Origin: an uncultured Chloroflexia bacterium
GTDB taxonomy: Bacteria > Chloroflexota > Limnocylindria > Limnocylindrales > CSP1-4
Direction of reading: 5' to 3'
DNA: 64,000 nt
Assembly (NCBI GenBank): GCA_963777975.1
Contig: CAVZSO010000009.1
Location: 1,481 to 65,480, forward strand
Below are positions 4,569-57,800 of the stretch, piece after piece. The notes beneath the pieces were generated by a model that searched no databases, had not been told where the DNA came from, and worked only from the letters and a program-made list of their open reading frames with translations. Both the position numbers and the translations under genes were made by a program. The stretch's first letter is position 1, and every line of letters begins with the position of its first letter.

Positions 4569-5469
4569 TCGTCTCCTGTTGACTGACCAGTCGATCGGTC
4601 TCGAGGTCGGGCTCCGGGAACGCCGACGGCGCGCGCCGCGAGCGCGCAGCCCGCCGCGAGCTGCTCCGCCGGCTCCGCCCCGGCCGCGCGGGCGGCGAGC
4701 AGCCCGGCGGCGAAGGCGTCGCCCGCGCCCGTGGTGTCGACCACCTCCGCGGGCTCGGCCGAGCAGCGCAGCACGCGCTCGCCGTCGCTCCAGACGGCGC
4801 CCGCCGCCCCGCACGTCACCACCACCTCGCGCCCGCCGCCGGCGAGCATGCGGGCGGCGCGCGACGCGTCCGCCTCACGCGTCAGCACGCGCGCCTCGTC
4901 GGCGTTGGGGAGCAGCAGCGCCGCGCCGGCCGCCCAGTCCAGGAACGCGGGCTCGGCGGCCAGCGGGAGCGGCCGAGGAGGGATCGACCGAGACGGTCAT
5001 CCCGCGCGCGGCGGCCAGCTCCAGCGCGCGCAGCATCGCCGGCCGCGAGCCGGGCCGCGGCGGCCGTAGCCGGTCAGATGCAGATGCTCGCCGTCCGCGA
5101 GCTCCGCGAGCTCGAGCGCGTCGTTGGCGCCCGCGTCGGGGATCATCGTGCGCTCGCCGCCCGGGTGCACGAGCACGATGCAGGTGCCGGTCGGGAGCTC
5201 CGCGTCGCGCTCGACCGCCAGCGAGACGCCGCCCAGCGCGGCGACCGCCGCATCCCCGAGCGGGTCCGCGCCCGCACGGCCGGCGAAGGCGACCCGCGCT
5301 CCCGCGTGCGCGAGCCAGGCGGCGACGTTGGCACCGAGCCGCCCTGGTGCTGCGCGATCCGCGCCGGCGTGTCGCTGCCGCGCGCCAGCTCGCCGGGCAG
5401 CGCCGCGACGACGTCGACCATCAGGTCCCCGACCACCACGACGCGCGCGGCGGCCCCGCGCGCGCTCAC
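4561..5469 (-). pseudogene. psuK: PfkB-family carbohydrate kinase, probably pseudouridine kinase; frame changes, 3' end uncertain
   Basis: VVVVGDLMVDVVAALPG..., VAAWLAHAGARVAFAGRAG, IVLVHPGGERTMIPDAGAN, and DTTGAGDAFAAGLLAA (PfkB signature). The GTG start overlaps the psuG stop (GTGA). It lies immediately downstream of psuG. Confidence 0.7.
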
Positions 5470-16129: not shown

Positions 16130-16914
16130 TAGAGGCCGTCCGGGTGCCGCACGGTGTAGCCGTCCGTCGGGCGCATCTTCGCCGCACCAGCGCGGGCCGT
16201 CGGAGGCGCGTCGTTGCAGCCCGTGTCGAAGCGCAGGCCGGCCACGACCATGGACGCCGTGGCCGCCGCTGCCGTAGGTCGTGATCCACTGCCCCTTGCC
16301 GGGCTTGCCGAAGCACGAGAAGTCGCCGGACGTCAGCGCCCGGTCGACCAGCCCGGCGCCGTGCAGCGCGTACGACATCGAGCCCGAGCAGTCGTAGCCG
16401 GAGTCCTCCCAGCGGCCGTGGCCGCCGCCGTACTTGTACGGCTTGCCGACGATCCTGTTGCCGGCCGCGATCGACGTCCTTGACCTCCTCGGGGCCGACT
16501 CGGGCGCGGTCGCGGTGCCGTCGGCGTCGAGCACGGCCTTCTCGCCCGCGGCGGGCGCGACGGGCGCCGGCTGGGCTGCGGGCTGGCGAACAGCGTGATC
16601 GCCGGCGTTGACCTGCTGCGCAGCTTGCGGCCGTCCGAGCGCGACACCCGGCCGTTGACGCGGCGCTTGCGAGCGGCGCTCCCACGACTTCACGCGGCGG
16701 GCGGTGAGCGGACCGTACTGGCCGTCGACCGAGGTTCGGAGACCGACCCGCGTGAGGTAGTCCTGGAGCACGCGGACGTCCCGGCCGGCCATCCCCTGGC
16801 GGAGGTTCCGATCGCCCAGGGTCAGCCGGGCGGCTTCCGCCGGGCGCGGAATAGATGGGCACGAGGGCCCCGGCCATGGCCAGAGCCGTCGACGAGCGTA
16901 CGACTGCGTGGCAC
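16130..16914 (-). pseudogene. Secreted NlpC/P60-type cell-wall hydrolase with a PG_binding_1 domain; frame changes
   Basis: Signal-like ...STALAMAGALVPIYSAP. PG-binding GMAGRDVRVLQDYLTRVGLRTSVDGQYGPLTARRV. Catalytic IVGKPYKYGGGHGRWEDSGYDCSGSMSYALHGAGL. The end ...GYTVRHPDGL is followed by TAG at 16130-16132. It is preceded by a riboswitch candidate. Confidence 0.65.
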
Positions 16915-16935
16915 GACGGACGATCCTTTCTTCTA

Positions 16936-17083
16936 CCGCCTACGGGGTTAGCTGTCGGGCTCGCGCGGAAAGAAGGTCGCGCTACGCGAATACGTGGCGA
17001 TTCGCCCCTGGCCGGGTCTCCCGGCCCACTGCTCGGTTCCCCCGTTCCCCTCCGGCCCCGCGGCCGGACGGGGATTCGGCGTT
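16936..17083 (-). promoter_or_regulatory. ydaO/kimA-type (cyclic-di-AMP) riboswitch candidate in the 5' leader of the NlpC/P60 gene
   Basis: The minus-strand RNA is AACGCCGAAUCCCCGUCCGGCCGCGGGGCCGGAGGGGAACGGGGGAACCGAGC...GGCCAGGGGCGAAUCGCC...GAGCCCGACAGCUAACCCCGUAGGCGG. It has two GAAUC boxes, G-rich GGGGA segments, and a 3' CCCGA..AGCUAACC.CGUAGGCG block, as remembered from the ydaO consensus. An RBS GAAAGGA and GTG 16914 follow. Confidence 0.65.
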
Positions 17084-18367
17084 ATGTCCCCTACGAAGCG
17101 CGCCACTCTAGCGGACGCCCTGGTCGCTAGCGTCCGGGCCGTGACGGATCTCGACGAAGCCGATCGCGCCCGGCTCGACGCCGCCACCGCGCACCTCGAG
17201 CCGCCGTTCGCGGTCGTCGACCTCGACGCCTTCGACGCCAACGCCGCCGACCTGGTGCGGCCGGGCCGGCGGGCAAGCCGATCCGGCTGGCCTCGCAAGT
17301 CGGTGCGCTGCCGCGCGCTGGTCGACCGCGCGCTGGCGCGGCCGGGCTTCGCGGGATCATGGCCTTCACGCTGCCCGAGGCGCTGTGGCTGGCCGGCGCA
17401 CGGCTCTCGAGGACGTCGCTCGTCGCCTACCCGACCGCCGACCGCGCGGCGCTGCGCCGAGCTCGCGCGCCGACGACGGCGCGCGCGGCGCGATCACGCT
17501 GATGGTCGACTCGTCGCGCACCTCGACCTCGATCGACGCCGTCGGCCGCGCCGGACGCGGGCCGCTCCGTGCGCGTCTGCCTCGACCTCGACGCCGTCGC
17601 TGGCGGCCGCTCGGCGGCCGGGTGCGCGATCGGCGCCCGCGCTCGCCGCTGCGCACGCCCGCGCAGGCCGGCGCGCGCTGGCGCGCGAGGTCGGCGCCGC
17701 GGCCGGGCTTCGTGCTCGACGGGCTGATGGCCTACGAGGCGCAGATCGCCGGCGTCGGCGACCGCCGCCCGGGCAGCGCCGCTGCGCGGCGCGCGCGATC
17801 CGCGGCGATGCAGGCCGCGTCGGCGCGCGAGCTGGCCGGCCGCCGCGCCGCGGTCGTCGCCGCGGTGCGGCGGTCGCGCCGCTGCGAGTTCGTCAACGGC
17901 GGCGGCACCGGCTCGCTGGAGCGCACCGCCGCCGAGGACGCGGTCACCGAGGTCGCCGCCGGCTCGGGCCTCTACGCGCCCGACGCTGTTCGACGCCTAC
18001 CGCGCGTTCACGCCGCGGCCCGGCCGCGCTGTTCGCGCTGCCGGTGGTGCGCCGGCCCGCGCCCGGCGTGGCCACCGTGCTCGGCGGCGGCTACCTCGCG
18101 TCGGGCGCGGCGGGCCCCGACCGGCTGCCCGTCGCCCCACCTGCCCGCCGGGCCTGCGGCTCGACGCGCAGGAGGGCGCCGGCGAGGTGCAGACGCCGCT
18201 GCTCGGCGCGGCGGCCGCACGCGCTGCGCGTCGGCGACCGCGTGTGGTTCCGCCACGCGAAGGCGGGCGAGCTGTGCGAGCGCTTCGACGCGCTCCACCT
18301 CGTCGAGGGCGACGCGGTCGTGGCGACCGTGCCGACCTACCGCGGCGAGGGCAAGACGTTCCTGTAG
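17084..18367 (+). pseudogene. Amino acid deaminase/aldolase (alanine-racemase-N fold, D-Ser deaminase / D-Thr aldolase-like); many frame changes, true start may be downstream
   Basis: LEPPFAVVDLDAFDANAADLVR, PIRLASKSVRCRALVDRAL, GFVLDGLMAYEAQIAGVGD, FVNGGGTGSLERTAAEDAVTEVAAGSGLYAP, and RVGDRVWFRHAKAGELCERFDALHLVEGDAVVATVPTYRGEGKTFL followed by a stop. Confidence 0.6.
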
Positions 18368-32105: not shown

Positions 32106-33358
32106 GGCCTCGATGGTTGTAGCGGCTCGGTCAAGACCATTCCGCCGCGCGAGGGGCGCAGGGTCACGGAGCCGCGGATCATCCTCTCCGTGTGCTGCCC
32201 GGCCGGGGCGAGGGCGAAGCGCTCCAGCACGGCGCGCAGCACCTCGCGCAGCTCGAGCGCGGCGAACGCCGCCCCGGCGCAGCGCCGCACGCCGCCGCCG
32301 AACGGGAGGTACGTGCCGGGCGCGGGCGCGGCGCTCAGGAAGCGCTCCGGCCGGAACGCCGTCGGCTCCGGCCACGCCTGCGGGCGGCGGTGGGCGAGGT
32401 AGATGCAGGGCGCGACGTGGACCCCGGGCGGGAGCGTGTGGCCGCCGATCTCGAACGGCGCGGCGACGCGGCGGGCCGCGATCGAGAGCACGGGCCGCAC
32501 GCGCAGCACCTCCTTGACGACCGCGTCGAGGTAGGCGTCGTCACCCGCGCGCACGCGCTCCTGCGCTCCGGGATGGTGCGCGAGCCGCTCGAGCGCCCAG
32601 GCGAGCGAGCCCGCGGTCGTCTCGTGGCCGGCCGCGAGCACGGTCACCACCTGGTCGCGCAGCTCCTCGCGGGCGATGCCCGCCTCCCGCAGCACGGCGA
32701 GCAGCGATCCTTCGGCGTGGCCGCCGCGGTCGATCTCGTGCGCCAGCAGCGCGTCGACCTCGGCCACCGCGCGCAGGAACGCGCTCCAGGTCGCGCCGCG
32801 GTGCAGCGACATCGCGACCAGCCGCGGCAGCGACGCGGTCATGTCGAGCGCGCGGCGGATCGCGGCGCGCAGCTGCGGGCGCTCGACCGGGCCGAGCACG
32901 ACGCGCAGGATCACGTCGAGCGTCAGCGCCTGCATGCGCGGGAGCGTGCGCAGCTCGCCCGCCGTCCAGCCCGCGACCTCGTCCTGCGCCATCGTCGCGA
33001 CCGTGTCGCGCCAGCCGTCGAGCGCCTCGCCGTGGAAGGCGGGCAGCAGCTCCCGGCGGCGGCGCAGGTGCTCGGGACCGTGCGTGAGCAGGATCGAGGT
33101 CGGGCCCGCGAACGGCTCGAGCACGGTCGAGCTGGCCCCGCCGTGGAGCTGCTCGTCGCCGGCCGCGAAGATCCGCCGGATCTCGCCCGGGTCGGCGACC
33201 AGCACCATCGGCGCGTCGGCCCACGCCACCCGGACCGTGAACGGGTCGCCGTGGCGCGCGCGGCAGCGGCGCAGGAACGCGGTCGGCCGCGCGATCCACT
33301 CGACCGTCTGCAGCGCGGCCGGTTCCCTCGGGCCAGGCGGGAGCACGTCCTCCATCAT
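32075..33358 (-). CDS. Cytochrome P450
   Basis: Intact 427-aa ORF: AGHETTAGSLAWAL (I-helix), EVLRVRP (ExxR), and FGGGVRRCAGAAFA (heme Cys-ligand loop). Confidence 0.9.
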   Translation of the reverse strand: MMEDVLPPGPREPAALQTVEWIARPTAFLRRCRARHGDPFTVRVAWADAPMVLVADPGEIRRIFAAGDEQLHGGASSTVLEPFAGPTSILLTHGPEHLRRRRELLPAFHGEALDGWRDTVATMAQDEVAGWTAGELRTLPRMQALTLDVILRVVLGPVERPQLRAAIRRALDMTASLPRLVAMSLHRGATWSAFLRAVAEVDALLAHEIDRGGHAEGSLLAVLREAGIAREELRDQVVTVLAAGHETTAGSLAWALERLAHHPGAQERVRAGDDAYLDAVVKEVLRVRPVLSIAARRVAAPFEIGGHTLPPGVHVAPCIYLAHRRPQAWPEPTAFRPERFLSAAPAPGTYLPFGGGVRRCAGAAFAALELREVLRAVLERFALAPAGQHTERMIRGSVTLRPSRGGMVLTEPLQPSRPCRSSAATTA

Positions 33359-33392
33359 CGCGCGCCGCGGGCCGCGGCACGGCGGGGCGCCG

Positions 33393-33770
33393 CTACAGGG
33401 GGCGGCGCCCGCCGAAGCCCGACTCCGGCGCGTGCCAGTGCCCGACCTCGGGCTCGTCGAGCAGCCAGCAGAGGTAGATCTCCTCGCCGCCGAGCAGCGA
33501 CGGGAAGTCGATCAGGCCGCGCTCGAGGTCGCGCACGACGACGTCGAGCTCCTCGAGCTGGTCGAAGCCGAGCGCCACTTCCAGCGCCGCGGCCGCGTGC
33601 TCGCGGCCCGGCCAGGCGCCGCCGCTGACCTCGGCGAGGGAGGCGAACTCGGGATGGAAGCCCTCGGCGGTGAGCTGCCGCCGGGCGTCGCGGACGCGGC
33701 GCACGATGCGCCCGACGAGGTCGAGCTTCGCGTTCGCCTCGTCGACGGTGTAGTGACGGTGATGGAGCAT
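33393..33770 (-). CDS. DUF2203-like protein
   Basis: Intact 125-aa ORF: MLHHRHYTVDEANAKLDLVGRIVRRVRDARRQL...VVVRDLERGLIDFPSLLGGEEIYLCWLLDEPEVGHWH. This pattern is remembered from the DUF2203 family. Confidence 0.65.
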   Translation of the reverse strand: MLHHRHYTVDEANAKLDLVGRIVRRVRDARRQLTAEGFHPEFASLAEVSGGAWPGREHAAAALEVALGFDQLEELDVVVRDLERGLIDFPSLLGGEEIYLCWLLDEPEVGHWHAPESGFGGRRPL

Positions 33771-33827
33771 CTCTGGCGGGGCTGTTACCCCGCTCCGCCG
33801 ATTGCTATCCGTGCCCGAACGGGCAAC

Positions 33828-34160
33828 TCAGGTGCGGTAGCGACCGCCCGCCTTCGCCCACTCGAGCAGGTGCGCGACGCCGCAGAACCCGTCCGGAATC
33901 CGGTGCTCCCCGCGGTTGCGCACGACCGCCACGTGGTCCTCGGGCGTCAGCTCCCGCTCGCACCACGCGCAGTGGGTGAGCCCGTCGCGCACGCCCTCGG
34001 CGTCGCCGGGCAGCGGCTCCCAGTAGGCGCCGCGGATCGCCCACGGGATCACGTGCTCGAGCCGGCAGAAGACGGCGCGGCGTCCGCCGGCGAGCTCGTA
34101 GGCGCGGAAGCCGTCCCATGGGTCCACGGCGGCGCCGCACCAGGTGCAGGGCTCGCTCAC
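33828..34160 (-). CDS. Hypothetical 110-aa protein with two CxxC pairs (zinc-ribbon-like)
   Basis: Intact ORF: MSEPCTWCGAAVDP...THCAWCERELTPEDH... Its ATG overlaps the stop of the upstream gene (ATGA at 34157-34160). Confidence 0.55.
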   Translation of the reverse strand: MSEPCTWCGAAVDPWDGFRAYELAGGRRAVFCRLEHVIPWAIRGAYWEPLPGDAEGVRDGLTHCAWCERELTPEDHVAVVRNRGEHRIPDGFCGVAHLLEWAKAGGRYRT

Positions 34161-34666
34161 AGGGGGAGCTCGAAGCGGCCGTCGCCGACCGCGAGCAGCA
34201 GCGGCTCGCCGTCCCGGGCGACGATCGTCATCGGCAGATCGGGGTCCTGGGTGGCGAACTCGGCGGTCGCGACGCTGCGGCCGCCGAACGCGCGGGCGAG
34301 CTCGAGCACCGCGCCCCCGAGGTTGGCGATCGCGCCGATCGGCGCGGCCAGCTCGCCCGTCACCGGGTCGGCCTTCAGCGCCGAGGACGGCGCGGGCCGG
34401 ATCTCGGGCAGCGCGCGCGGCGGCGCGGGCACCGGCATCTCCCGCGGGACCTCGTGCGCCTCGCCCTCGTCGATGAGCTCGAGCACCGCGTCCGGCCGCG
34501 CGTCGAGCATGGCCGGCGGGCCCGCGTCGCCGAGGTCGAGCAGCAGCACGACGCGCAGCGCCTCCGAGCGCGCGAGGAACGCGCGCACCGTCGCGATCGC
34601 CTCAGCGTGACGGGCGATCGCCTTCAGCGCGGCGGGATCCTGGGCTCCGGGCTGCACCGCAGCCAT
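34157..34666 (-). CDS. Hypothetical 169-aa protein
   Basis: Intact from MAAVQPGAQDPAALKAIARHAEAIATVRAFLARSEALRVVLLLDLGD... to ...GDGRFELPL. It starts 11 nt after the upstream stop. No family recognised. Confidence 0.5.
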   Translation of the reverse strand: MAAVQPGAQDPAALKAIARHAEAIATVRAFLARSEALRVVLLLDLGDAGPPAMLDARPDAVLELIDEGEAHEVPREMPVPAPPRALPEIRPAPSSALKADPVTGELAAPIGAIANLGGAVLELARAFGGRSVATAEFATQDPDLPMTIVARDGEPLLLAVGDGRFELPL

Positions 34667-34677
34667 GGTGGCACGGC

Positions 34678-35034
34678 TCAGCGCGTGAGCTCGACGGCGC
34701 GGCGCGCCTCGAGCTCGTTCGGGTTCTGCCCGTAGCCCGCCGTGACATAGGAGAGCCACATCCAGAGGCGGCCGTGCTGCTCCTGCCAGACGTGGCAGAG
34801 CTCGTGGCAGATGAGATCGTCCGAGACCTCGGCGAGCGGGTGGCGGATGAAGATCTGCTCGCAGGACTCGTAGCCCTGGAAGCGCCGGAACCACGGCAGC
34901 CGGAACAGCCACGGCGCGTGCCGGATCCGTGTCCGCGCGGTGCTGACCGGGCGCTCGTGGAAGCCGAGCCGGTCCAGCCGCGCCTTCGCGCGGGCCAGCG
35001 CCGCGCGCTCCTCGGAGCTGCCGCGCGCCGCCAT
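34678..35034 (-). CDS. Minimal HExxH zincin-like protein (pattern reminiscent of DUF4157)
   Basis: Intact 118 aa: ...FQGYESCEQIFIRHPLAEVSDDLICHELCHVWQEQHGRLWMWLSYV... ATG 35034 lies 2 nt after the stop (TAG 35037-35039) of the ATPase gene. Confidence 0.55.
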   Translation of the reverse strand: MAARGSSEERAALARAKARLDRLGFHERPVSTARTRIRHAPWLFRLPWFRRFQGYESCEQIFIRHPLAEVSDDLICHELCHVWQEQHGRLWMWLSYVTAGYGQNPNELEARRAVELTR

Positions 35035-35036
35035 GC

Positions 35037-37028
35037 CTACAGCGCGCCCAGCAGCTCCTTGAGGCGGTCCTCGCCGCGGTCGTCGAGGTCGCCGAGCAGG
35101 GGCTCGACGTACACCGAGAAGGCCTCGCGGGCGAGCGTGCGCTCGTCGGCGGGCTCGATCGCGTTGCGCTCGGCGGCGTATGCGGCGGCGGCGGTGAACA
35201 CGCCGGCTCCGAGCGGCCGCAGCTCGCGCAGGTCGAGCAGCCGCTCGGCGGCGTTGGCCGCCGCGTGGTCGCCGCCCGCGGCGTGCTCGAGCAGCGCGCC
35301 GAGGTCCGACTCGGCCGGGAACGGGACCTCGATGTGGGCGAAGCGCCGCGCGAGCGCGGGCGATGCCTTCAATGGCCCGCCGGCGGTGGCCACGACGCGC
35401 CAGTCCGAGGGCGGCTTGACCTCCTCGCCGCCCGGCATCGTCAGCGGCAGGCCGCCGAGGAACGAGCTGAGGCCGCCGAGCGCCTTGTCGGCCTTGGCGC
35501 GGTCGAGCTCGTCGATGACGAGCCAGCGGCCGCGGGTCGCGGCGTCGGGGACGGTGCCCGTGGTGGCGGGGCGGCCGTCGGACGCGGGGCGGCCGAGCGC
35601 CTCTCCTGGCGCTCCAGTGCCCGGTCGGCGTGTACATGACGGCGCCGCCGGCGCGCCCGGACGTGACGGCGGCACGGGCGACGGCGAGCGCCAGCGTCGT
35701 CTTGCCGGAGCCCGCGGGGCCGGTCAGCACGACGTGGCGGCCGGCGCCAGCGCGGCGGCGAGCGAGGCGTAGGCCGAGCTCGGCAGGCGCAGGCCCTGCC
35801 CCTCCGCGGCGGCGCGGATCGCGCCCGCGTCGAGGAAGCCGCTCGGTTGGCGCGGCAGGGGCGGCGGGACCTCGGAGAGCCGCGGCGGCGCGGCGGCCGC
35901 GGCCGGCGCGGGCGCGGGCGCGGGCTCGGCGGGCTGCGAGATGACCGTCGGCGCGTCCTGCGGGGGCGACGGCTCGGGGGCGGGCGGCTCGGGCTCGGGA
36001 GCCGGGGGCTCAGGCTCGGGCGCCGGCGGTTCGGGCTCCGGCTCGGGCGCCGGCGGCTCGGGCTCCGCGGCCGGCGTCTTCGGTGCGGCCGCGCCGACGG
36101 CGGTGTAGGTGCTCGTGGCGTCGTCGGGATCGGCCGTCTCCCAGATGTCCGCGGGCGGCGTCGGGGGGCCGGGCGGCGCCGCGGGGGCCGGCGAAGGCTC
36201 GGGCGCCGGGACCGGGACGGGCGCCCCCGGGCCGACGTCCTGCCACTCGTCCTCCTCCTCGTCAGCCGCGGCGGGCGCGGGCGCGGGTGCGGCGGGAGGC
36301 TCCGGGGCAGCCAAGGGCTCCGGCTCGGCCTCGGGCTCCGGCTCCGGCTCGGCGTGCAGCCGGTTCCATTCCGCCTCGCCCTCGGCGCGCACGGCGTCCG
36401 CCCCGCCGGGGTTGAGCTGCGCGGCGATGTCGGTCATCGACATGTGGATGGGCAGCGTGAGCTCGTTCTTGGTGTCCTGCCCGGTCGGGGTCAGGGCGCG
36501 CTGGTCGTCGATCATGCGCATGTCGGCCATCAGCGCGAGGTAGCGCTCGCCCTGGTTCTCCAGCGTGTTGTCGTTGTCCCAGCCGGCGCGGCCGAGGTAG
36601 CTGAGCGAGCGGCCGAAGTCGAGCCGGGAGATGCGCGTCGCCGGCGGCACGGACGAGAGCAGGCTCAGGCCGATCGCGAGCCCGTGGTAGATCGAGTCCG
36701 TCATGTGCTTCTCGAGCAGTTGGCGCCGCAGCCAGTCGGCCTGCGCCTCCGAGACCTCGAACGGCGCGTCCTGGTCGCCGGCGCGGGTGTAGCGCTTGCC
36801 GATCTCCGTCAGCTCGACGACCCCGCGGTCCTCCTTCAGCAGGCCCGCGGAGCGGGCGTAGGAGACGAACTGGCGCGTCCGGCCCTGCGCGTTGTCGAGT
36901 CCGGGCGGGAACAGATCCTCGTTCTGGAACTCCGTGACGAACTCGTCGAGCCGGACGCGGTCGCGGGTGGAGATGGCCCGCAGGAGGCCATGGGACTCGC
37001 CGATACGGGGGGCCGGGATGGGACGCAT
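35037..37028 (-). pseudogene. Multidomain protein: N-terminal winged-helix-like region, Pro/Glu/Ala-rich linker, and C-terminal McrB/AAA_5-type P-loop ATPase; two frame breaks (near 35740 and 35590)
   Basis: ORF 35724-37028 (434 aa, intact) ends ...LPSSAYASLAAALAPAATSC*. The +2 frame continues directly as AGRHVVLTGPAGSGKTTLALAVARAA (Walker A, whose beta-1 strand has no in-frame start codon). ORF 35037-35675 then gives GRWLVIDELDRAKADKALGGLSSFLGGLPLTMPGGEEVKPPSDWRVVATAGG..SPALARRFAHIEVPFP. Confidence 0.6.
35969..36074. repeat. Imperfect tandem DNA repeats (about 24-nt unit) encoding (PEPEPPAPE)n in the linker
   Basis: ggctcgggggcgggcggctcgggctcgggagccgggggctcaggctcgggcgccggcggttcgggctccggctcgggcgccggcggctcgggctccgcggccggc. 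On the minus strand this translates to EPEPPAPEPEPEPPAPEPEPPAPEPEPPAPEPSPP. Confidence 0.7.
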
Positions 37029-37040
37029 CGCCCGACCTTA

Positions 37041-37078
37041 ACGGGACGCGCGCGGCCCTGGAAGGACCGCGCGCGCCC
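37041..37078 (-). terminator. GC-rich hairpin between the Lys/Ala/Pro-rich gene and the ATPase operon (possible terminator or attenuator)
   Basis: ACGGGACGCGCGCGGCCCTGGAAGGACCGCGCGCCCGT. The outer arms ACGGG/CCCGT and CGCGCG/CGCGCG pair around one bulge. It starts 10 nt after the stop at 37088. There is no clear U-tract. Confidence 0.35.
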
Positions 37079-37087
37079 GTGCAGGGT

Positions 37088-37750
37088 TCAGGAGCCGGTC
37101 TTCGCGGGCGTCTTGGCGATCTGCGCCGCCTCGCCCGCCTTCGTGGTCTCGACCGTCGCCGCCGCGCCGCCGTCTCCGGCCGCGGCGGTCGGCTTCGGCT
37201 CCGCGAGCGTCGCCTTCGGCGTCGCCACGGGCTCCGGCTTCGCGGCCACGGGCTTCGGCGCCGGAGCGGCCGGATCCGGCTTCGGCTCGGCGGCCGCGGG
37301 CTTGGGCGCCGGAGCGGGCTTGGGCTTCGCCGCCGCCGGCTTGGGCTTCACGGGCGGCGGCGCGCTCGCGGCGGGCGGCGTCGCGGTCGTGCCCGCGGCC
37401 TTCGGCTTGGCGGCCGCGCGCGGCTTCTTCGGCGCGGTGCCCGACTTCGGCGCGCCCGCAGCGCCCATCTTGGGCGCTCCGCCGGCGGCCGTGCGCGAGC
37501 GCGGCTTGGCGGCCGGGCGCGACTTGGTCGCGGTGCCGGTGGCGGCGCCCCTCGCGCGAGCGGTCTTCGTGGAGCCCGCGCCCGTGGTGCGGGCGCGCGG
37601 CTTCGCGGGCGGAGCCGCGGCCGGCTCGGGCGTCACGGTCGCGCTCTCCTCCCCGCCGCGGAGGCGGCCGACCAACCCGGCGACTTCATTGACGGCGTTC
37701 TTTCCGGCGCCGGCGACGGCGCCGATGATGTTCTTGGGATTGAGTGCCAT
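37088..37750 (-). CDS. Lys/Ala/Pro-rich basic protein (histone-H1/HupB-tail-like low complexity)
   Basis: Intact from MALNPKNIIGAVAGAGKNAVNEVAGLVGRL, followed by ...KPRAAAKPKAAGT...VKPKPAAAKPKPAPAPKPAAAEPKP... A GGAAGG-like RBS lies upstream of ATG 37750. Confidence 0.55.
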   Translation of the reverse strand: MALNPKNIIGAVAGAGKNAVNEVAGLVGRLRGGEESATVTPEPAAAPPAKPRARTTGAGSTKTARARGAATGTATKSRPAAKPRSRTAAGGAPKMGAAGAPKSGTAPKKPRAAAKPKAAGTTATPPAASAPPPVKPKPAAAKPKPAPAPKPAAAEPKPDPAAPAPKPVAAKPEPVATPKATLAEPKPTAAAGDGGAAATVETTKAGEAAQIAKTPAKTGS

Positions 37751-37779
37751 CCGGGAGGCCTTCCCGCAGGCACGGGCCG

Positions 37780-38022
37780 CTACACAGGCAGCGGGAACGG
37801 GTCGCCGCAGGCGACGGCGAGGGCCTCGGAGGGCGTCAGAATGCGCACCGGAGTCCCGTCGGACGCGCGCAGCTCCGCGCGGATGCGGCCCGAGAAGCGG
37901 CCGAGATCGAAATGCAGCTCGTAGGCGCCCTCGACGGCTGCCTGAGCCCGCTCCCACGCTGCGTCGATCTCGTCCAGGACCTCAGGCGGCGGCCCTGCCG
38001 GGAGCGTGTGGGAGCGGGTCAT
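37780..38022 (-). CDS. Hypothetical 80-aa protein
   Basis: Intact: MTRSHTLPAGPPPEVLDEIDAAWERAQAAVEGAYELHFDLGRFSGRIRAELRASDGTPVRILTPSEALAVACGDPFPLPV. No family confidently recognised. Confidence 0.4.
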   Translation of the reverse strand: MTRSHTLPAGPPPEVLDEIDAAWERAQAAVEGAYELHFDLGRFSGRIRAELRASDGTPVRILTPSEALAVACGDPFPLPV

Positions 38023-38117
38023 CAGGAAGCTGATCTTCTTCAGGAAGGAACTCGCTGCATTCCTTACATCGGCGCGGCCGCGCCGCGCGCGATGGGGTCG
38101 CCACCCCACGAGGCCGC

Positions 38118-38876
38118 TCACAGGCCCGGCGGGTGGCGCGCGACGAAGCCGGCGTTCGAGCGCATCGTGTTCGTCCAGCGCGAACCGGTCTCCCGCGGGC
38201 CGGAGGTGTCGAAGCGGACGCCGGCGACGACCAGGTAGACATGGCCGTGGTTGGCGTAGATCGTCACCCACTTGCCCTGTCCGGCCTCGCCCCACGACAT
38301 CAGCGGGCCGGAGGCGAGCGGCGCGGAGGCAGGCCGGCGGAGGCGAGCACGAACGACACCGAGCCGGAGCAGTCGTAGCCCGTGTCGATCCACTTGCCGT
38401 GGCCGCCGCCCCACTTGTAGGGGGTGCGCGCGATCGAGTTGCCGGCCTCGATGATCTGGCGCACGGCCTCGGGCGCCTCGAGCGGCGGCAGGGCGACGCC
38501 GTTGGAGAGCGCGGTCGCGGTCGTGGTGCTGGGCGTGGACCTCCGACAGCACGCCGGTGGGCTTGCGCCCGCCCGTGCTGGCGGGAGAGGTGGGCTTCGG
38601 GCCGGGCTCGTCGAGACCGGGGTCGTCCTCAGCCGGCTCGGCGGCGCCGCTGCCGGCGTCTCCGGCCTGCGGCTGGACGACGCGCGCCCGCAGCTTCTTC
38701 GGCAACGGCGGCAGCTTCGACTCGCTGCGCGGCTCGGACTTCTTGCCCGTCAGGTCCGGCGAGCCCTTCTCGTCACCGGCCGCGCCGATCGCCAGGTAGC
38801 CGCCGCCGATCACGGCGAGGCCGACCAGGCAGGCGAGCAGGGCGGTGCGGCGCATCCACCGAGTATGGCGGCGCAT
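38118..38876 (-). pseudogene. Secreted NlpC/P60-type cell-wall hydrolase, paralog of 16130-16914; frame changes
   Basis: MRRHTRWMRRTALLACLVGLAVIGGGYLAIGAAG, a Lys/Pro-rich spacer, then (other frame) IARTPYKWGGGHGKWIDTGYDCSGSVSFVL and MSWGEAGQGKWVTIYANHGHVYLVVAGVRFDTSG...GFVARHPPGL followed by a stop. Confidence 0.65.
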
Positions 38877-39502
38877 CAGCGTCCCCTGCTCCAGAAGGAG
38901 GTCCTGGCGGCGGCGCCGCGCCTGGTCATGCCGATGTGCACGTGATCGCGGTGCGCGATCGTCGTGGTCGACTCTTGCGCTTGAGCTTGCCGCGCTTGCC
39001 GTAGCAGACGCTGGTACGGGCTGAACTCGGTCATCCCGGCGCCCCAGTAGCCGCAGTCCCAGATCAGCTCCTCGACGCCCATGCGGCGGGCGAGCGCCTG
39101 CGGGTTGCCCGCCGCGTCGGGCGCCAGCAGCAGGCGGATCAGCCGCTCGGCGGCCGCGCCGGTCGGCGCGGTCCGAGACGTCCAGGTGCCAGTCGATCGC
39201 GCGGTTCTCGGCGTGCAGCGACGCCTGGCCCTTGCCCCACTTCTCACAGCGGTAGGAGCCCCAGAAGACGCCGCGCGCGTTGGCCTCGAGCCAGCGCTGC
39301 AGCGCGAGCATCCCGGGCCGCGGGCCTTCGGCGTGCACTGGCGCGCGCCGTCGTAGATGGAGTCCTCGATCGGCAGCGACAGCAGCCGGTCGGCCGGGTT
39401 GCCCGCGACGGGGGCGGGGTTCTCGGGCAGGCGCACCATCGCGGAGGCGGAGCCCGCGAAGGAGAGCAGGAGCAGCGAGCAGATCAGGGAGAGGCGGATC
39501 AT
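38876..39502 (-). pseudogene. Secreted LAS-fold (hedgehog/DD-peptidase, M15-like) zinc peptidase candidate; frame changes
   Basis: Signal MIRLSLICSLLLLSFAGSASA. SLHAENRAIDWHLD fits SxHxxGxAxD-type metal ligands, and a C-terminal HRDHVHIG supplies HxH. The stop overlaps the ATG of the NlpC/P60 gene (ATGA). Confidence 0.5.
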
Positions 39503-39539: not shown

Positions 39540-40631
39540 TCAGGCCGGCACGGGGAGGCCCATCGCCTGCGCCAGGTCCGCGACCAGGTCCGCGGCCGCC
39601 TCGATGCCGCACGAGAGGCGCACGAGGTCGGCCGGGACGGCCGCGTCGGAGCCCTCGACGGACTGGTGCGTCATCGCCTGCGGGACCTCGAGCAGCGACT
39701 CGACGCCGCCGAGCGACTCCGCCAGCGAGAAGATCCGACGTCGCGCGCGGCGATGCCGGCGGCGTCCGGGTGGCGGAAGGAGACCATGCCGGCGAAGCCG
39801 GGCCAGCGGACGTCGCTCACGCCCGGCGCGCTCGCGCAGGAACGCCACCACGGCGCGCGCGTTCTCGGTGTGCGCCGCCATGCGCAGGTGCAGCGTGCGC
39901 AGGCCGCGGTGCACGAGGAAGCAGTCGAGCGGCCCGGGCACCGCGCCGACCGAGTTCTGGACGAAGCGCACGCCGCTCGTGCAGCGCGCGGGTCGCGCAC
40001 GATCACGGCGCCGCCGACGGTGTCGGAGTGCCCGCCGAGGTACTTCGTCGTGGAGTGCACGACGGCGTCCGGCGCCGAGCTCCAGCGGGCGCTGGTAGAC
40101 CGGCGTGGCGAACGTGTTGTCGACCGCGACGAAGGCGCCGCCCTTGCGCGCCACGATCGCCCTCGACGTCGACGACGTTCAGCGTCGGGTTGGTCGGCGT
40201 CTCGACCCAGATGAGCTTCGTCTCCGGCCGCACCGCGGCGGCGACGGCGTCGAGGTCGCACTGGTCGACCATCGTGTACTCGAGCCCCCAGCGCGAGAGC
40301 ACCTTGTCGACGAGCCGGTAGGTGCCGCCGTAGAGGTCGTCGGGGATGATCGACGTGGTCGCCCGCCGTGCAGACGGCGGTGATCAGCGCGTGCGTCGCC
40401 GGCCATGCCGGAGGCGAACGCGGTCGCGCGGCCGCCCTCGAGCTCGCCGAGCGCCTTCTCGAGCTGCGTGCGCGTCGGGTTCGCCGAGCGCGAGTAGTCG
40501 TAGTCCTCGACGAACTCGCCGGGCGCCTTCTGCACGTAGGTGGAGGCCTGGTGGATCGGCGGGACGACGCCGCCGAAGCACGGGTCGGGATCCAGCCCGG
40601 CGTGGACGGCGCGGGTCGCGAAGCGGGTCAC
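39540..40631 (-). pseudogene. Cystathionine gamma-synthase/gamma-lyase family PLP enzyme (Cys/Met metabolism); frame changes
   Basis: VTRFATRAVHAGLDPDP..GGVVPPIHQASTY, YSRSANPTRTQLEKALGELEGG, KLIWVETPTNPTLNVVD, VDNTFATPVYQRPLELGA, FSLAESLGGVESLLEVPQAMTH, and LVRLSCGIE. Confidence 0.8.
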
Positions 40632-52548: not shown

Positions 52549-52667
52549 GTCCGGCGGCGTCCTACTCTCCCACGCGGTCCCCCGCGCAGTACCATCGGCG
52601 CTGAAGGGCTTAACTTCCGGGTTCGGAATGGGACCGGGTGTTTCCCCTTCGCTATGGCCGCCGAAAC
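52549..52667 (-). rRNA. rrf: 5S ribosomal RNA
   Basis: Minus strand: GUUUCGGCGGCCAUAGCGAAGGGGAAACACCCGGUCCCAUUCCGAACCCGGAAGUUAAGCCCUUCAGCGCCGAUGGUACUGCGCGGGGGACCGCGUGGGAGAGUAGGACGCCGCCGGAC. These are canonical 5S motifs. Confidence 0.9.
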
Positions 52668-52756
52668 TCTATGGAGATGTACCGTGCCCGAGGGCCTGTT
52701 GGCGACCGTATCTCGGGAACCGCACAGTGGACGCGAGCAATCAAATGGAGTGAGAA

Positions 52757-55960
<3,204 letters not shown>

Positions 55961-56276
55961 AACTACAGATTGATGCTCGCGTCCACTGTGCAGTTCTCAA
56001 GATACGGGCGGTCCCGGTCCGCGCACCTCCGCATCCGCGGCGGGCGCGGGCCGGTCCGAAGGGATGGCTCAACGCGCCGTTCCCTCAGGACCCAACAGCG
56101 TGCTCGACCAGGCCGTCACCGCCGCCACCCGTTCCAGTCCCGAGGGGCCGTACTAACCGGCGTGAGCGAACGATCGGACCGAATAACCAGTGCTCCACTA
56201 GTGAGCTGCCATCTCGGGACATTCGCCCGAGACATGGCTCTGGACGCGATCTGCCGTAGAGACCGCGCCAGGTGCT

Positions 56277-57800
<1,524 letters not shown>

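Follow-up and report, generated by a model that had tools for sequence, protein, structure and literature searches.

A predicted McrB-derived NTPase gene with a zincin-like partner gene in a core-syntenic cluster: possibly an exapted, host-directed module

What a restriction-type NTPase does in the cell when its gene is followed by that of a small HExxH protein, and not by a nuclease gene, is the question raised by a gene cluster in a 64,000-nt stretch of contig CAVZSO010000009.1 (the window; G+C content about 75%). Four open reading frames (ORFs) on the minus strand, between 37028 and 33828, encode a large nucleoside triphosphatase (NTPase) with an AAA_5 core (the ATPase), a 118-aa HExxH protein, a 169-aa orphan protein (p169) and a 110-aa protein with conserved cysteines (the Cys protein). 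An earlier reading, made from the sequence alone (the sequence-only reading), had delimited the same four ORFs and suggested a conflict or defence module. We instead favour, with a probability of roughly 45%, an exapted, host-directed module with a cell-intrinsic role over a mobile anti-phage system. The parts are of known kinds, an McrB-family AAA_5 protein and a zincin, and their combination is undescribed: it was found neither in Pfam, NCBIfam and PADLOC nor in the literature searched, in agreement with the sequence-only reading, which had not recognised a described system.

The genes are closely spaced. The ATPase stop codon (TAG, 35039-35037) is followed after 2 nt by the HExxH start codon (ATG, 35034), and 11 nt separate the HExxH stop codon (34680-34678) from the p169 ATG (34666); both gaps had been reported correctly. 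The junction between p169 and the Cys protein is a 4-nt overlap that had been given as ATGA. It reads GTGA, and the Cys protein starts with GTG. The GC-rich hairpin noted upstream proved to be real (Table 1). It lies directly 3' of the stop codon (37090-37088) of the upstream Lys/Ala/Pro-rich gene and separates the cluster from that gene. No canonical U-tract terminator or sigma-70 promoter was found in 33300-38200.

The ATPase had been presented as the product of one gene. In the window this gene is split by two 1-nt indels, which had been spliced silently. Single-ORF orthologues nevertheless exist, with 666 aa in locus L008 (a 2.48-Mb contig) and 778 aa in L009; representatives range from 628 to 871 aa, and P0102 and P0118 span the N-terminal and ATPase domains. 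The domain fusion is therefore real. AlphaFold2 modelled the N-terminal domain as two winged-helix units, with a predicted local distance difference test score (pLDDT) of 90 and a predicted template modelling score (pTM) of 0.88, and a segment of this domain carries LICHELCHVWQEQHG. The best Foldseek matches were the DNA-recognition domains of FokI, BpuJI and Nt.BspD6I and the winged helices of SspB and Hel308, all of them weak (expectation value (E) at least 0.03, TM score about 0.45); Pfam Mrr_N also matched weakly (E 0.007). The winged-helix-like character suggested for this region was thus borne out by the model. The family of the domain is narrow, with 115 representative clusters among 1.84 billion proteins in an exhaustive profile search. 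It is also more conserved than the motor, at 69-96% identity among the 120 matches listed versus 44-87% for the ATPase domain.

The linker between the two domains, about 190 aa long, has a net charge of -32 and consists of 32% Pro. It contains the conserved short motifs EEDEWQDVGPG and PPADIWETADPDDATSTY. Orthologous linkers diverge in length (186-337 aa measured) and in sequence and keep the two short motifs, with the consensus E[DE]E[WY]xDVGPG and PPxD[IV]W[ED]xAxP[DE][DE]xT..Y. In the ATPase core we found the P-loop VVLTGPAGSGKTT, Walker A GPAGSGKT, Walker B WLVIDELDRA, the ...ALARRFAHIEVPFP block and ALARRF, so that the linker and all motifs quoted earlier for the N-terminal and ATPase domains were present. 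Pfam AAA_5 (PF07728) matched the frameshift-corrected sequence over profile positions 1-139 of 139 (41.1 bits against a cut-off of 22, E 2.3e-10), and intact orthologues likewise scored above the cut-off. In the double-arginine segment ALARRF, R167 is invariant in the ATPase alignment and R166 is present in most sequences. The NxxD/sensor-1 Asn is missing: the window has ATAGGPLKAS at this place, and all window-type orthologues have WR(V/I)(V/I)ATA.... The ATPase encoded at 6004-8004 of L008 has a Walker B of IDALDRA (Glu to Ala) and a P-loop of GPPQSGKT.

The McrB-type assignment made earlier held, by way of relatives. The profile of the window-family ATPase found midasin AAA domains as its best solved match in the PDB, followed by RecA and generic AAA+ proteins (60 of 84 matches listed). 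McrB was not among the matches listed for this profile, and membership of the McrB family is therefore transitive, through the distant homologue P0446. Identity between the window ATPase and P0446 amounts to 39% over 268 aa, lid included, and that between the N-terminal domains to 30-34%. The P0446 ATPase in turn matches the McrB structures 6ut3 (E 4e-10) and 6hz4 (E 4e-9), with 6ut5 within that range, and no named MoxR-family structure was among the 60 PDB matches listed for it. By this transitive homology, we predict that the window ATPase is a derived McrB-family NTPase.

Three architectures were seen among distant homologues of the N-terminal domain. In the P0446 type, the winged-helix domain is followed by a PUA-like domain (PF24405) and AAA_5; in P0455, it is followed by an unassigned middle part and an AAA+-like module without Pfam assignment; in the third, it lies between MrcB_N and a PD-(D/E)xK-like C-terminus with a D...ExK motif. 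The NxxD motif (MNxxD, the GTP-specificity/sensor-1 region) after strand 4 defines McrB. The PUA-type proteins retain it, with DELNRS and ATMNVFDK, whereas the window-type proteins have DELDRA and ATA-x-x-x.

One of the PUA-type proteins, WP_318599902.1 of Conexibacter stalactiti, comes from the same order in which the window lineage is placed. Its gene overlaps by 4 nt the following gene for a 403-aa partner (L094 6001-9431, JAWSTH010000088.1), and this pair is the only relative outside the window family with a readable neighbourhood. Homologues of this partner accompany plasmid-borne AAA_5 genes in Priestia, Paenarthrobacter and Halorussus, and all of these proteins share an invariant RPD...ExK motif. 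From this motif the partner would be nuclease-like, and we do not call it McrC; its family had no match in Pfam, in PADLOC or among PDB sequences. Two of the three plasmid AAA_5 genes (L090, L091, L092) adjoin DNA methyltransferase or restriction genes and the third adjoins a DUF3578 (MrcB_N-type) gene; the neighbours of these ATPase-partner pairs comprise methyltransferases, an NgoFVII-type enzyme, Vsr and the DUF3578 protein. A search of viral contigs with P0446 gave one distant (31% identity) locus with the ATPase only (L093).

Given the 39% identity to P0446, the matches of P0446 to McrB and the nuclease-coupled Conexibacter pair, the window family would therefore be a derived branch of an McrBC-like module. 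Like the Conexibacter and P0446-type modules, it has the tandem winged-helix domain (30-34% identity), the ATPase and lid (34-39%) and the overlapping-partner geometry, and it belongs to the same bacterial order. Unlike them, it appears to have lost the PUA-like reader, the NxxD/sensor-1 Asn and the nuclease-motif partner, and it has the zincin instead. In common with McrB itself, the GTPase subunit of the type IV restriction system McrBC, are an N-terminal domain of nucleic-acid-reader type, a linker, the AAA_5 core with both Walker motifs and the double-arginine segment ...A(L)xRRF, and a small partner gene overlapping the 3' end. It differs from McrB in having ATAGGPLKAS in place of (T)MNxxD, in lacking McrC, in its tandem winged-helix reader, in the 190-aa acidic disordered linker where relatives have the PUA-like domain, and in what appears to be vertical inheritance in core synteny. 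The gene directly downstream of the ATPase gene, where an McrC or nuclease partner was sought, encodes the 118-aa HExxH protein in the window and in 28 related loci, as the sequence-only reading had seen for the window. The flanks of the related neighbourhoods with gene calls and Pfam assignments showed no recognisable nuclease, and neither did the 8 kb on either side of the window locus.

The HExxH protein has 1881 homologues, nearly all of 116-125 aa, with 60-90% identity among those listed and no Pfam domain. Its model (pLDDT 85) shows a three-stranded sheet with helices. The residues H77, E78, H81, Q84, Q86, N104 and E107 are the same in all 85 sequences compared and lie in the motifs H77-E78-x-x-H81-V-W-Q84-x-Q86 and N104-P-x-E107. 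The protein looks like a gluzincin-like minimal zincin, because E107 is invariant and H87 is variable. A metzincin (HExxHxxxxxH) was considered and rejected, as H87 varies (H/D/N) and E107 does not. The weak fold and sequence matches were all zincins, namely abylysin, the VgrG2b effector peptidase (HEMTHVWQHQHG), SPRTN and IrrE (Foldseek E at least 1). The resemblance to DUF4157 proposed earlier was recovered, in that the nearest Pfam family is eCIS_core/DUF4157 (PF13699), below threshold in the window protein (14.6 bits against a cut-off of 22) and in 38 of 40 members (best E 0.011), and over the HExxH helix only. With eCIS_core/DUF4157, VgrG2b (6h56) and the minigluzincins (abylysin, 4jiu) the protein has in common the HExxH helix and the extended motif HE(L/M)xHVWQxQHG, and with zincins of the VgrG2b and abylysin type the small fold of three strands plus helices and the downstream Glu, all matches lying below family thresholds. 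It differs from eCIS_core and VgrG2b proteins in being a predicted stand-alone cytoplasmic protein of 118 aa without toxin, trafficking or eCIS context. A small phage family, phrog_37302, gave the one weak match in PHROGs (E 4.6e-4).

For p169 we found no match in Pfam (16 members scanned), NCBIfam, PADLOC, PHROGs or a PDB profile search. Its C-terminal half is conserved, with the pattern LPEIRP...TGEL.AP.G...AFGGRSVATA.F...AREGEP. The Cys protein, which had been described as having four cysteines, has six conserved Cys and two His in two CxxC-x22-24-C-x3-H repeats, conserved in 12 orthologues. The repeats resemble the C-x2-C-x19-22-C-x3-C/H pattern of a TRASH/FCS-type zinc ribbon, and profile matches were sub-threshold only (zf-FLZ, E 0.21; L24e, E 0.007). 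L022 encodes p169 and the Cys protein as an in-frame fusion of 280 aa; unless this is a sequence error, it hints that the two are functionally linked.

We surveyed the neighbourhoods of 86 loci with an HExxH homologue, 80 from short-read soil metagenomes and 6 on long contigs, in which the genes were located by tblastn and tblastx. The ATPase gene was directly upstream of the HExxH gene on the same strand in 28 loci and convergent with an inverted HExxH gene in 6. It was absent from 35 in spite of at least 400 nt available upstream, and 17 were not assessable. In about 22 of 27 loci, the ATPase stop and HExxH start were 0-2 nt apart or formed an ATGA/GTGA overlap; such spacing persisted at ATPase identities as low as 43%. 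An ATPase gene without an adjacent HExxH gene was never seen in 34 loci, though all except L001 and L005-L007 had been found via the HExxH protein; these four were found via the ATPase, and the HExxH gene was adjacent in each. The p169 gene was present in all 26 assessable ATPase-bearing loci (adjacent in 18, 0.6-2.6 kb away in 8), in none of the 6 convergent ones and in 6 of 25 loci without the ATPase. In L008, the genes between HExxH and p169 are opposite-strand GCS2/ATP-grasp genes. A cluster of GCS2, circularly permuted ATP-grasp, Asn-synthase and GATase genes on the opposite strand was seen in L007 (8323-14609) and L008 (8380-10904), and one sub-lineage has it as an insertion between HExxH and p169.

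The order ATPase-HExxH-p169 is conserved, and the cluster is not a fixed four-gene system. The conservation across genomes that had been proposed as a check of the four-gene idea was thus found for the first three genes. The Cys protein occurred in 12 of 28 p169 loci, and half of the assessable HExxH loci (35 of 69) had no ATPase. The gene for a DUF2203 protein, which the sequence-only reading had left out, comes next after p169 or the Cys protein in 18 of the 26 loci that could be assessed. In the window it lies on the same strand, 57 nt 3' of the Cys-protein gene; the syntenic cluster probably extends beyond 33828, with this gene as a likely fifth member. A literature search on DUF2203 gave no useful paper.

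The wider region is collinear between the window and L008, in the order cystathionine beta-synthase-type, gamma-lyase-type, g198, g248, g87, Lys/Ala/Pro-rich, ATPase, HExxH and p169 genes. The window, L005, L006 and one further contig have the DUF2203 gene and a P450 gene downstream. Synteny with core genes of the chromosome is retained in relatives down to about 60% identity, and the named sources of relatives are Solirubrobacteraceae bins. No VWA, nuclease, methyltransferase or other defence gene was called in the flanks of the annotated neighbourhoods, and no HExxH relatives were found on plasmids or viral contigs. To judge from these comparisons, the cluster appears to be vertically inherited, chromosomal and core-syntenic in a Solirubrobacteraceae-type lineage. 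The small conserved protein g87 (37801-38022, minus strand; ...HDLPAGPPPEVL..ID.AWERA...) is always upstream in the syntenic block (L008, L034, L079). The Lys/Ala/Pro-rich protein (37088-37750, minus strand), of low complexity and histone-H1-like, is encoded directly upstream of the ATPase and is syntenic in L008 and L034. It has no database match, and its strong positive charge is complementary to the acidic linker of the ATPase.

In the host-directed module that we favour, the ATPase would retain nucleotide binding and oligomerise like McrB, the winged-helix array would bind DNA, and the linker motifs would hold a conserved host partner. The ATPase would be co-produced with the small zincin, whose gene occupies the position of the nuclease gene with a gap of 0-2 nt or a 4-nt overlap, and would position or regulate it. 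The exaptation would resemble that of PcdA in Staphylococcus (PMC10602043). PcdA of Staphylococcus aureus is an McrB-family protein exapted to the selection of the cell-division plane (PMC10602043). Both are lineage-restricted McrB derivatives with vertical inheritance, apparent in the case of the window protein, and with McrC lost and catalytic motifs degraded (PMC10602043). PcdA still carries two EVE domains, with its C-terminal helical bundle lost and its Walker A degraded (PMC10602043), whereas the window protein, known here from its sequence, keeps Walker A and B and the lid and has the winged-helix reader, the disordered linker and the coupling to a zincin.

Several observations weigh against this host-directed module. 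Six of the 35 loci that lack the ATPase (among 69 assessable) have p169, and the absence indicates that the ATPase is dispensable; since the catalytic residues are invariant in these loci too, the zincin would be independent of the ATPase. In an unsupported neighbour-joining tree built from the 118-aa protein, some ATPase-less loci are nested within clades that bear the ATPase, and such sporadic loss would also be expected of an accessory defence gene. In one clade (L007, L031, L043, L053, L074, L078) the inverted HExxH gene converges on the ATPase 3' end at a distance of 6-107 nt, with no p169 downstream. The physical link and co-expression of ATPase and zincin are suggested by gene order, and DNA binding by weak fold matches (E at least 0.03). 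Hydrolysis may not be conserved, to judge from the D-A for D-E in Walker B of L008. Finally, McrB was not among the 60 of 84 PDB matches listed for the window-family profile.

A more specific proposal can be made only tentatively. The McrB motor might have been rebuilt in Solirubrobacteraceae as an NTP-gated, DNA-localised protease module, a DNA-bound AAA+ ring in which the two conserved motifs of the acidic tether capture a host protein and the co-translated zincin replaces the nuclease. Candidates for the captured protein are the Lys/Ala/Pro-rich, histone-H1-like neighbour and a cytoskeletal or divisome protein. Such a module could be a host regulator or a protease-armed, type IV-like defence system, neither of which has been described.

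Among the rival explanations, mere synteny survives best, although we consider it unlikely. On this view HExxH, p169 and DUF2203 would form a housekeeping unit of their own, specific to the lineage, such as a small cytoplasmic metallopeptidase and its partner, and the McrB-derived gene would merely be lodged upstream and co-transcribed. About half of the HExxH loci have no ATPase, with catalytic residues unchanged, as this explanation would predict. Moreover, the ATPase-less loci L034, L079 and L024 keep the order of g87, Lys/Ala/Pro-rich gene and IF-3, then HExxH, then p169; two further groups of loci have HExxH alone beside unrelated genes; and one clade has it inverted. The whole region being collinear between relatives, adjacency alone is also weak evidence of a functional link. 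Against mere synteny stands the stop-start coupling of ATPase and HExxH, which is kept down to 43% identity with the same geometry as in the Conexibacter McrB-like/nuclease pair. In addition, the ATPase gene was never without an adjacent HExxH gene in 34 loci, mostly found via HExxH, and p169 accompanies the ATPase in 26 of 26 loci, versus 6 of 25 loci that lack the ATPase.

An active, undescribed anti-phage or conflict system appears less probable still. It would be an McrBC-like type IV module, in which the winged-helix domain senses foreign DNA, the AAA_5 ring serves as a switch or motor, and the zincin takes over from McrC as effector. Its action might be proteolysis of the abortive-infection type, and p169 might inhibit it or be the immunity partner. 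This is close to what the sequence-only reading had concluded, and ancestry is its basis: the McrB descent, the nuclease-bearing sister form in the same order, and the plasmid homologues of the sister ATPase that adjoin methyltransferases and restriction genes. The HExxHVWQxQHG core common to the type VI secretion system effector VgrG2b, the sub-threshold eCIS_core/DUF4157 matches, the weak phrog_37302 match, the presence/absence polymorphism of the ATPase and the tight zincin-p169 pair, which resembles a toxin-immunity layout, are also consistent with it. However, PADLOC-DB v2 gave no system match, with only short matches of the P-loop region (mad8, IetA, TRIP13) and none for the N-terminal domain, the HExxH protein or p169; the Cys protein had a marginal DrmA match (E 0.004, 27 residues). 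The locus is part of a conserved core-syntenic region rather than of an island; the modified-base reader has apparently been lost, as has the NxxD/sensor-1 Asn, and no copies of the HExxH protein were found on plasmids or viral contigs. Defence sensors are normally less conserved than the motor, the opposite of the pattern here. Fast-evolving effectors are not expected at 60-90% identity across 1881 members, the identity found among those listed of this zincin family, most of which occur without the ATPase. Taken together, core synteny, the lack of plasmid and viral relatives and the conserved sensor domain weigh against the defence proposal.

Alternatively, the ATPase could be a decaying pseudogene in the window genome, a relic of a lost restriction system with real frameshifts, which we regard as very improbable. 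One frame covers the N-terminal domain, the linker and 35 aa at the start of the ATPase module before it ends at a stop codon (35726-35724); the P-loop segment is in a second frame, and the remainder returns to the first. The two shifts and the premature stop thus take the P-loop out of the reading frame, and other lineages have lost the ATPase altogether. Against this, the 43 out-of-frame codons still read VVLTGPAGSGKTTLALAVARAAVTSGRAGGAV..., are conserved as much as their flanks and keep the phase of their own frame in G+C content at third codon positions (GC3), the GC3 frame plot switching phase at both breaks. Compared with the short-read relatives L011, L013 and L016, the window is one G short in the G run at about 35740/35741 and has one extra base at about 35607, and it is collinear elsewhere. 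The two indels compensate each other, and the module is 91% nucleotide-identical to L011. Housekeeping neighbours have 2-7 comparable shifts each. The cystathionine gamma-lyase-type gene 3 kb upstream (39558-40631, minus strand) has 7 frame switches in 1.1 kb, each piece matching the orthologue, and the secreted or NlpC/P60-like neighbours (38885-39413 and 38121-38855) have several each. Related long-read bins are broken likewise, even within the highly conserved N-terminal domain. The frameshifts are most likely assembly or consensus errors, because dozens of cancelling shifts in housekeeping genes are implausible.

The window is thus probably a consensus-error-rich, long-read assembly, in which pseudogene calls are unsafe. 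This also removes an argument of the sequence-only reading, which had stressed that the three small genes are intact. As the breaks are clustered sequence errors, intactness is uninformative on selection, and 1.2 kb free of breaks is not significant at the local rate (about P = 0.1). As a caution, arguments from intact versus disrupted genes cannot be used in this window.

A MoxR-type chaperone pair (MoxR-VWA or a similar housekeeping AAA_5 complex), the outcome that the sequence-only reading had named as contrary to its proposal, is hardly credible and was rejected for want of a VWA gene: the AAA_5 fold is in common and JGI labels homologues 'MoxR-like ATPase', but no VWA gene was called in the eight neighbourhoods, the window protein matched no MoxR-specific Pfam family (weak bpMoxR matches were seen for plasmid relatives only), and it is McrB, not RavA or CbbQ, that supplies the nearest solved single-domain relatives of the sister form.

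Other features were seen elsewhere in the window. A complete ribosomal RNA operon (5S, 23S, 16S; 52549-57800, minus strand) accounts for a low-GC stretch; its 23S match is 3208 nt long against a model of 2925 positions and hence contains insertions. A cyclic di-AMP (ydaO-type) riboswitch (16921-17091, minus strand, 68.7 bits) precedes a gene paralogous to the NlpC/P60-like g248, and this paralogue (tblastn match 16132-16522) is frameshifted too. The tRNA-Glu (UUC) found by ARAGORN (5225-5324, minus strand) is unusually long at 100 nt and may carry an insertion or an indel error.

Table 1. Positions of the cluster features and flanking elements in the window, with the basis of each assignment
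Feature	Position	Strand	Basis
GC-rich hairpin, terminator-like, without U-tract	~37042..37080	-	folding: -46.9 kcal/mol, z = -5.26, 0/200 shuffles as good
Predicted derived McrB-family AAA_5 NTPase gene, ~663 aa after two-indel correction	35037..37028	-	three frame segments as sequenced
N-terminal tandem winged-helix domain, aa 1 to ~205	36414..37028	-	AlphaFold2 model, Foldseek
Acidic Pro/Glu/Ala-rich linker, ~190 aa	35847..36413	-	orthologue comparison
AAA_5 core and helical lid	35037..35846	-	Pfam AAA_5
Out-of-frame P-loop segment	35607..35741	-	alignment of relatives, GC3 phase
118-aa putative minimal zincin (HExxH protein)	34678..35034	-	homologues, model, invariant residues
169-aa orphan protein p169	34157..34666	-	conserved C-terminal half
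110-aa Cys protein, GTG start	33828..34160	-	repeat pattern, with sub-threshold profile matches
DUF2203 protein, 125 aa	33393..33770	-	Pfam DUF2203 (PF09969), 98.5 bits against cut-off 24, E 5.5e-28

If the host-directed reading is true, the cluster would represent a second, independent exaptation of an McrB-type restriction NTPase after PcdA. The ancestral form, nuclease-coupled and with a PUA-like reader, and the derived form, zincin-coupled and with a disordered tether, would then coexist in one order, and the transition between them would be directly open to study. The cluster also brings together three families without a Pfam, NCBIfam or PADLOC model, namely the tandem winged-helix domain, p169 and the 118-aa HExxHVWQxQH zincin, the last with more than 1800 members in soil metagenomes, and it provides an example of a disordered linker in bacteria that has kept short linear motifs.

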